Shown here piece after piece: positions 18,372 to 18,487 of a stretch of 64,000 nucleotides of DNA; position 1 is the first letter of the stretch; every line of letters begins with the position of its first letter. The notes under the pieces were generated by a model. That model was not told where the DNA came from and made no database searches. It was given only the letters and a program-made list of their open reading frames with translations. The stretch is from Escherichia coli (lineage in GTDB: Bacteria; Pseudomonadota; Gammaproteobacteria; Enterobacterales; Enterobacteriaceae), in assembly GCF_003018235.1 (NCBI RefSeq), contig NZ_CP027437.1. One strand, given 5' to 3'. A program made the position numbers and the translations under genes.

Positions 18372-18487
18372 TTGACGCATTATTGCTATTTTGGCAATAT
18401 TAAGTCTCATTCATTCCGGTAGTAGAAGTTCGTTTGTCGTACTAAAGCGCCTCCGGTAGCACCATCGGGGGCGCTTTTTTTGTGCCT
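18372..18487 (+). ncRNA. Candidate small RNA (about 80 nt) between promoter-like TTGACG-N17/18-AATATT and a strong intrinsic terminator
   Basis: No ATG in the transcribed segment; 10-bp GC-rich stem (GCGCCTCCGG/CCGGGGGCGC with G-U pairs) followed by T7; terminator is plus-strand only in a region where all genes are minus-strand. Confidence 0.35.

Follow-up and report, generated by a model that had tools for sequence, protein, structure and literature searches.

The DNA analysed here, referred to as the window, is a 64-kb stretch of an Escherichia coli genome which carries an island at tRNA-Pro. A 9-nt remnant of the 3' end of this tRNA, GCACGAGAG, was found near 15323 (~15323-15331) and at 25656-25664, and the island was therefore taken to span ~15.3-25.65 kb. 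Its far end is marked by this repeat only. PICIs are known to leave damaged tRNA fragments behind (PMC10111431), and the 9-nt remnant fits this description. The island encodes an integrase, an AlpA-like regulator, a DUF4222 protein and a RepA-type helicase/primase, as well as a second integrase, a PerC-family activator, a 64-aa open reading frame (ORF) and a fusion of a ClpP protease with the major capsid protein. We recognised PICIs by int and alpA, a variable zone, a primase/helicase with an iteron origin and a late zone with a captured capsid gene and cos, arranged mostly unidirectionally and integrated at a tRNA or within a late gene of a prophage. Gene content, iterons, cos and tRNA-Pro of the island all conform to this scheme, and its four zones are organised as has been reported for Gram-negative PICIs (PMC10111431, PMC6092414). 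The island is a Gram-negative PICI with lambdoid helpers; the P4-type framing of the first-pass annotation does not hold for an island of this type with a lambdoid cos site (PMC10111431). Close relatives (L002 and L013, i.e. E. coli 2014C-3097 and O157:H7 H6437) are embedded in the large-terminase gene of lambdoid prophages and co-oriented with the late genes, and such helper-embedded PICIs have been described before (PMC10111431).

The features around the candidate studied here are listed in the table. Between 15.6 and 22.4 kb every gene is on the minus strand, in line with the earlier statement on all annotated genes; farther on, plus-strand ORFs are located at 22815-23147. These are a YlcI/YnfO-family ORF (~22815-22997) and a 47-aa hydrophobic ORF (23004-23147), both of which may end at a terminator at 23296-23321. 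A 353-aa minus-strand ORF in the same zone (22412-23473) looks spurious and is of low-complexity composition, and its C-terminal end alone matches an Icd-like gene annotated in strain SCU-111, from which this zone differs. The second integrase gene is of the phage type and belongs to the late zone, with the replication genes on one side of it and perC on the other (18981-19994, minus strand); extra integrases have been noted in some PICIs (PMC10111431). Moreover, the module of cos, small ORF and capsid gene recombines with different replication modules, either PerC and RepA helicase or SSB and primase. An origin of replication at the candidate was ruled out, since the iterons sit beside the helicase gene.

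Table. Positions of the candidate and of neighbouring features in the window.
Feature	Position	Strand	Remarks
Predicted late promoter of the 64-aa/protease-capsid operon	18283-18311	minus	-35 TTTATC (18311-18306), 17 nt, -10 AATAAT (18288-18283)
64-aa ORF	18056-18250	minus	first gene of the late operon; phrog_4934
Type A satellite-specific module	18335-18487	plus	AT-rich upstream stretch, promoter-like element, short non-coding stretch, terminator
Sigma-70-like promoter candidate	18372-18401	plus	TTGACG (18372-18377), 18 nt, AATATT (18396-18401)
Predicted non-coding RNA, ~77 nt	18408-18484	plus	start deduced from the -10 position, end from the T7 run
Possible stem-loop 1	18419-18440	plus	GUAGUAGA / loop AGUUCG / UUUGUCGU
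Intrinsic terminator	18444-18484	plus	14-bp stem, 6-7 nt loop, T7 tail
Satellite cos site	18487-18684	minus	cosQ-like, cosN-like (~18647-18636), cosB-like; homology to the lambdoid/Stx Rz-terS stretch
Intrinsic terminator after perC	18685-18702	minus	upstream of cos; conserved in type A, B and C satellites
Iterons	20227-20430		two CCTCAC(T)TTTT sets around an AT-rich stretch, right after the helicase/primase gene; origin-of-replication signature
tRNA-Pro(GGG)	25650-25726	minus	

The candidate directly adjoins the cos site, an adjacency that was missed by the first-pass annotation. The cos stretch is 72-85% identical to Stx2 phages, 1720a-02, CP-1639, mEp460 and VT1-Sakai, in which it lies between the Rz endopeptidase and small-terminase genes. 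Within it, the cosN-like sequence reads GGGCGGGTCGGC, and its position was set by resemblance to GGGCGGCGACCT of lambda. The phage homology stops at a T8 run, and the hairpin of the candidate occupies the slot in which the phages carry the ribosome-binding site and start codon of terS. The cos site is bracketed by two inward-facing terminators, the one after perC on the minus strand and that of the candidate on the plus strand.

Related satellites differ in what they carry at this place. Alignments sharing the flanking late-promoter block revealed an insert of ~150 nt (type A), which is absent from helper phages and from two further satellite types, B and C. The bounds of the insert bracket exactly the interval from the promoter-like element to the terminator, and the module lies between cos and the late promoter. 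By blastn, the type A module was detected in ~143 of 5426 complete E. coli genomes (~2.6%) and in none of the phage records. As an anchor independent of the candidate, we used an invariant 20-mer, CATTATTGATCGATAAAAGT, at 18281-18300. Among viral and metagenome sequences it picked up 55 and 24 loci, respectively, all of them E. coli-like and without adding a third allele of the module, and among 100,044 species-representative genomes it had a single, unrelated match (Paraflavitalea). Type B (L006-L008 and ~20 IMG/VR loci) has a different insert with a canonical minus-strand terminator (GCCGGATTTTATCCGGC followed by T6) between cos and the late promoter; here, a DUF1441 small-terminase-like gene follows the capsid gene. 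In type C (L048, L049, L052 and L057), the replication module and the late promoter are not separated by a cos site, and a terminator is located only ~65 nt upstream of the late promoter. The CATTATTGATCGATAAAAGT block is invariant across types A, B and C. Since it is common to the three layouts, it most likely holds the predicted late promoter. If this placement is correct, the candidate and the capsid mRNA point away from each other, without an antisense overlap. A cis-antisense overlap would be possible only with perC read-through across cos or with helper late transcription in the embedded copies.

The 64-aa ORF overlaps the start of the protease-capsid gene (16170-18065). Its protein motif, VH[IL]DA.T...Y...H..P.P..QI.R.AV.W, is common to types A and B although their nucleotide sequences have diverged heavily. 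In a single-sequence AlphaFold2 model of low confidence, an N-terminal segment precedes two helices, as would fit a ribbon-helix-helix regulator, and palindromes at 18324-18353 are putative operators of this protein. Searches with the 93-aa and 64-aa proteins for an Rpp-like or other function yielded no match in PDB sequences, Pfam or NCBIfam.

The terminator is the solid part of the finding: it is strong, strand-specific and conserved. On the plus strand, positions 18444-18477 read AAAGCGCCTCCGGT-AGCACC-ATCGGGGGCGCTTT, directly followed by the T7 run at 18478-18484; after GTGCCTG comes a second T run, the T8 at 18488-18495. A G+C-rich stem-loop that runs straight into a U stretch, as expected of an intrinsic terminator, is thus what the transcript would contain. 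The stem comprises 14 pairs, of which eight are G-C and two G-U, and it was the top-scoring terminator in a 10-kb scan (15-25 kb). Hairpins with a T run of this strength were found at eight sites in the 64-kb window compared to ~0.2 per shuffle. For the predicted 78-nt RNA a folding energy of -25.5 kcal/mol was calculated (z = -3.0), with the hairpin-only centroid at -23.5. The minus-strand RNA of the same region folds with only -17.3 kcal/mol because the G-U pairs become C-A mismatches, and its tail reads UUUAGUAC. From both differences it follows that the hairpin is truly biased towards the plus strand. The strong plus-strand intrinsic terminator which had been reported before is borne out at the sequence level. 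A full-text literature search for the hairpin sequence found no paper.

The evidence for the promoter is of a different kind. Sigma-70 promoters were judged by -35 and -10 hexamers spaced 16-18 nt apart, an A at -11 and a T at -7. The TTGACG/AATATT element named in the first-pass annotation is indeed present, with a spacer of 18 nt and 9 of 12 matches in alleles A1 and A2a of the module (see below). However, the same scan returned 13 such sites where 12.7 were expected, and the promoter match by itself therefore carries no weight. An A at -11 is nearly always needed by sigma-70 promoters. In allele A2b, which makes up about half of the unique haplotypes of the common allele, this A is replaced by G and the -10 hexamer reads AGTATT, so that the key base has been lost there.

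As to a coding function, the earlier statement that the interval lacks an ATG was confirmed for 18378-18487. Upstream of it, a 28-aa plus-strand ORF from 18336 was rejected as a gene, since it is truncated or without start codon in other alleles. A 70-aa antisense ORF was likewise discarded because it is not conserved between satellite types, in contrast to the minus-strand 64-aa ORF. No unrecognised upstream plus-strand gene that the terminator might serve, the objection raised at the outset, was found.

The predicted RNA would consist of a single-stranded 5' part, stem-loop 1 and the terminator hairpin, a structure that is compatible with all sequences. Of the two alleles, A2 has a strong stem-loop 1 (GCGAUAAA / AACUCC / UUUGUCGU) and A1 a weak one, and UUUGUCGU is the sole conserved 8-mer of the RNA body. 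The changes in stem-loop 1 comprise three one-sided, wobble-compatible ones and one broken pair. Over the whole proposed structure we counted four one-sided wobble changes and two broken cells, and no two-sided covariation was seen in the proposed helices, all among four distinct sequences from two deep alleles. Nevertheless, the proposed pairs are retained in 97.7% of the cells, compared to 42-64% in slid controls. A match to a phage regulatory RNA family, as had been expected, did not emerge from covariance-model searches with C4, isrK and all of Rfam. Rfam at gathering threshold gave no RNA-family match to the candidate in a scan of the whole window. C4 (RF01695) and isrK (RF01394) were not detected at E <=10 in 18200-18800, at <=5 in the A2 allele or at <=1 in 22300-24200. 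The best matches of Rfam 15 covariance models reached 25-26 bits against thresholds of 50-60 and aligned to the terminator hairpin only.

Type A occurs in two deep alleles only, A1 (the window and strain SCU-111) and A2, the common one. Between A1 and A2a neither the -35 nor the -10 hexamer differs (0/6 each), and the T tail is unchanged as well (0/7), compared to four of 18 changes in the spacer and 16 of 42 (38%) in the RNA body. In the comparison of A1 with A2, the terminator stem is identical (0/28) and the loop carries three changes. As a neutral yardstick we used the fourfold-degenerate sites of the adjacent capsid gene, 31% of which are different. At this rate, the chance of an unchanged stem would be ~3e-5 and that of unchanged hexamers (0/12) ~0.01; therefore, both stem and hexamers look constrained. 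Judged by the same yardstick, the RNA body is without sign of constraint, as its 38% is about the neutral rate. Within A2, polymorphism was not significantly lower in the transcribed part (5/76) than in the flanks (11/67; p = 0.07), and a comparison with cosB was not significant either.

Targets of the candidate were sought within the island and among the helper genes next to it. Duplexes of both alleles with the island and with 16 kb of helper plus satellite were evaluated, and the best ones were within the range of shuffled sequences. The complement of the RNA 5' part matched the window at chance level. Complementarity to the 64-aa/capsid leader, which had been put forward as an example, came down to an 8-nt anti-Shine-Dalgarno match that is buried in the terminator stem. 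In allele A2, CUCCUUUGUCGU is perfectly complementary to ACGACAAAGGAG, located 63 nt upstream of the ATG of the helper protease-capsid gene in the 3' end of the portal gene. This match is found in all five loci with a visible helper junction (L013 at 2202-2214 on the minus strand, L002, L062, L063 and L067). The chance of any such 12-mer match in a 16-kb locus is estimated at ~0.03, and the five loci show no variation. A satellite small RNA with an allele-specific recognition region tuned to the helper might reduce or reprocess the capsid mRNA of the helper at a time when protease-capsid is made from the satellite's own copy, a scenario that we regard as highly unlikely. If true, such targeting would be capsid hijacking at the RNA level. 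Downstream of ACGACAAAGGAG, the helper also has a GTG in frame, with a strong Shine-Dalgarno sequence.

Taken as a whole, the first-pass interpretation is supported in part. We tentatively favour the view that promoter, short transcript and terminator of the module form a self-contained cassette which makes a functional small RNA, a candidate "RNA moron"; its rough probability is 0.4. RNA polymerase would initiate near 18408, move away from the late promoter and terminate at the T7 run, yielding a ~77-nt non-coding RNA whose 5' part is single-stranded and is followed by a weak stem-loop and by the U-tailed terminator hairpin. The promoter is presumed to fire and the RNA to accumulate as a stable species, which could base pair through its allele-specific 5' part or through the conserved UUUGUCGU block. 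In addition, the terminator would keep plus-strand transcription out of cos and the replication genes beyond.

This last step could also be the whole function. Plus-strand transcripts that arise, as stray or divergent ones, in the AT-rich region of the late promoter would then be stopped before they enter cos and continue in antisense into the replication module, and the RNA would be a by-product without a sequence-specific role; the element may act weakly on the minus strand, too. Such a purely insulating terminator is the main rival reading, which we consider possible, if on the doubtful side. It is favoured by a strict conservation that is limited to stem and tail, with an RNA body that drifts at the neutral rate, and by allele A2b, where the -10 is degraded and the terminator kept. 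It also agrees with the two terminators facing inward on cos, with the terminator of opposite orientation in the same slot of type B and the one directly upstream of the late promoter in type C, and with the empty target search in the island and adjacent helper genes. However, insulation leaves unexplained why the insert has a promoter-like element of its own and why its -35 and -10 are unchanged between A1 and A2a while spacer and body changed. Moreover, no other source of plus-strand transcription is evident upstream.

The terminators of types B and C raise the question of the other strand, as both have canonical minus-strand terminators in the slot. The hairpin of type A might accordingly be a minus-strand RNA element, namely a partial terminator or processing site in read-through of the perC or SSB operon across cos, which shields the late promoter. 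The minus-strand tail of A2, UUUUACAC, is better suited to this than that of A1, which is UUUAGUAC. However, the hairpin is much weaker in this direction (-17 vs -25 kcal/mol, the G-U pairs turning into C-A mismatches), and a good minus-strand terminator already exists upstream of cos, so that we judge this explanation improbable. Most unlikely of all is an element acting as DNA, i.e. a protein-binding palindrome or packaging accessory site that extends cosB like the PICI-specific cosB elements read by Rpp-TerS complexes: the hairpin does abut the cosB-like end of the phage-homologous stretch and always travels with this cos type, and own cosB determinants are known in PICIs (PMC6739421), but helper phages with the same cos have no hairpin and start terS there, a phage-like cosB makes special recognition unneeded, sequence searches revealed no Rpp-like protein, the repeat pairs in its inner half through G-U only and is no DNA palindrome there, and the conserved T7 run is the signature of a terminator.

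The first-pass annotation had also hinted at another RNA from a second terminator pair, and plus-strand terminators are indeed present at 23296-23321 and 23419-23446. The latter, a hairpin followed by T5, belongs to a second small plus-strand unit (23363-23451) with a perfect extended -10 (TGATATAAT, 23363-23371) and a predicted RNA of ~74 nt, located immediately downstream of alpA but encoded on the other strand. Of the 913 E. coli genomes with a match to 23216-23451, most are 90-97% identical over this stretch. An Rfam scan of 22300-24200 gave no match to this unit. Paralogy of the candidate with the 23419-23446 hairpin was dismissed, as the alignment was not convincing.

Only two satellite systems are known to have small RNAs, namely the P4 CI RNA and the PLE small RNA. 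The Gram-negative PICIs, a large family through which virulence and defence genes spread in E. coli, Shiga-toxin-producing strains included, have no described example. If the small-RNA reading is true, a small RNA gene beside cos, transcribed away from the late promoter, would give satellites a further level of control in their interference with helpers. If the module is an insulating terminator only, it is an ordinary feature whose remaining value is that of a marker for one type of cos and late module.

Several known systems resemble the favoured small-RNA cassette in part. The OOP RNA of phage lambda has 77 nt, its own promoter and an intrinsic terminator and is antisense to cII. The candidate is of the same size and has a similar layout: a short non-coding body is preceded by what looks like a constitutive promoter and closed by a strong intrinsic terminator, and the unit runs counter to the operon around it. 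However, OOP lies between cII and O and the candidate beside cos, and there is no sequence similarity. Besides, no overlapping sense mRNA is evident for the candidate because the predicted late promoter is downstream of it. Phage morons are autonomous inserts of promoter, gene and terminator, and the classical ones encode proteins. With these the candidate shares the discrete insert with promoter-like element and terminator, which is placed between two conserved blocks in some relatives only; in contrast to the protein-coding classical morons, the insert is non-coding.

Among satellites, the P4 CI RNA is similar in that it is a small RNA encoded by the satellite, with a regulatory role in P4. 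CI, however, arises by processing of the early-operon sense leader in the "Bro" zone and works through seqA/seqC pairing, whereas the candidate, with a promoter-like element of its own, is encoded on the other strand next to cos in the late zone and does not match C4 or isrK. These relatives of CI (RF01695 and RF01394) have been reported in some Gram-negative PICIs (PMC10111431). Another short RNA is HnrS (EcOnc10-12), a Hfq-dependent, prophage-encoded RNA of 66 nt from EHEC (bioRxiv 10.1101/2025.11.27.690950). Like the candidate with its promoter-like element, HnrS is short, has a promoter of its own and an intrinsic terminator and is found among late genes, in this case of lambdoid prophages in Shiga-toxin-producing E. 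coli. Its sequence is a different one: blastn at word size 7 of both alleles against the Sakai prophage Sp10 (L100), in which a copy of HnrS resides, gave chance matches only, which led us to reject an identity with HnrS, and the module is absent from 1.88-1.975 Mb of Sakai. Moreover, HnrS is multicopy and widespread in EHEC/EPEC, in contrast to the small share of complete E. coli genomes that carry the module. Finally, the PLE small RNA of Vibrio cholerae regulates transcripts of both satellite and helper, with targets derived from an interactome (bioRxiv 10.1101/2022.04.08.487710). PLE is an unrelated satellite with another host and helper, and the likeness is one of description; the PLE small RNA is nevertheless satellite-encoded, and its role is of the kind that the candidate could have.
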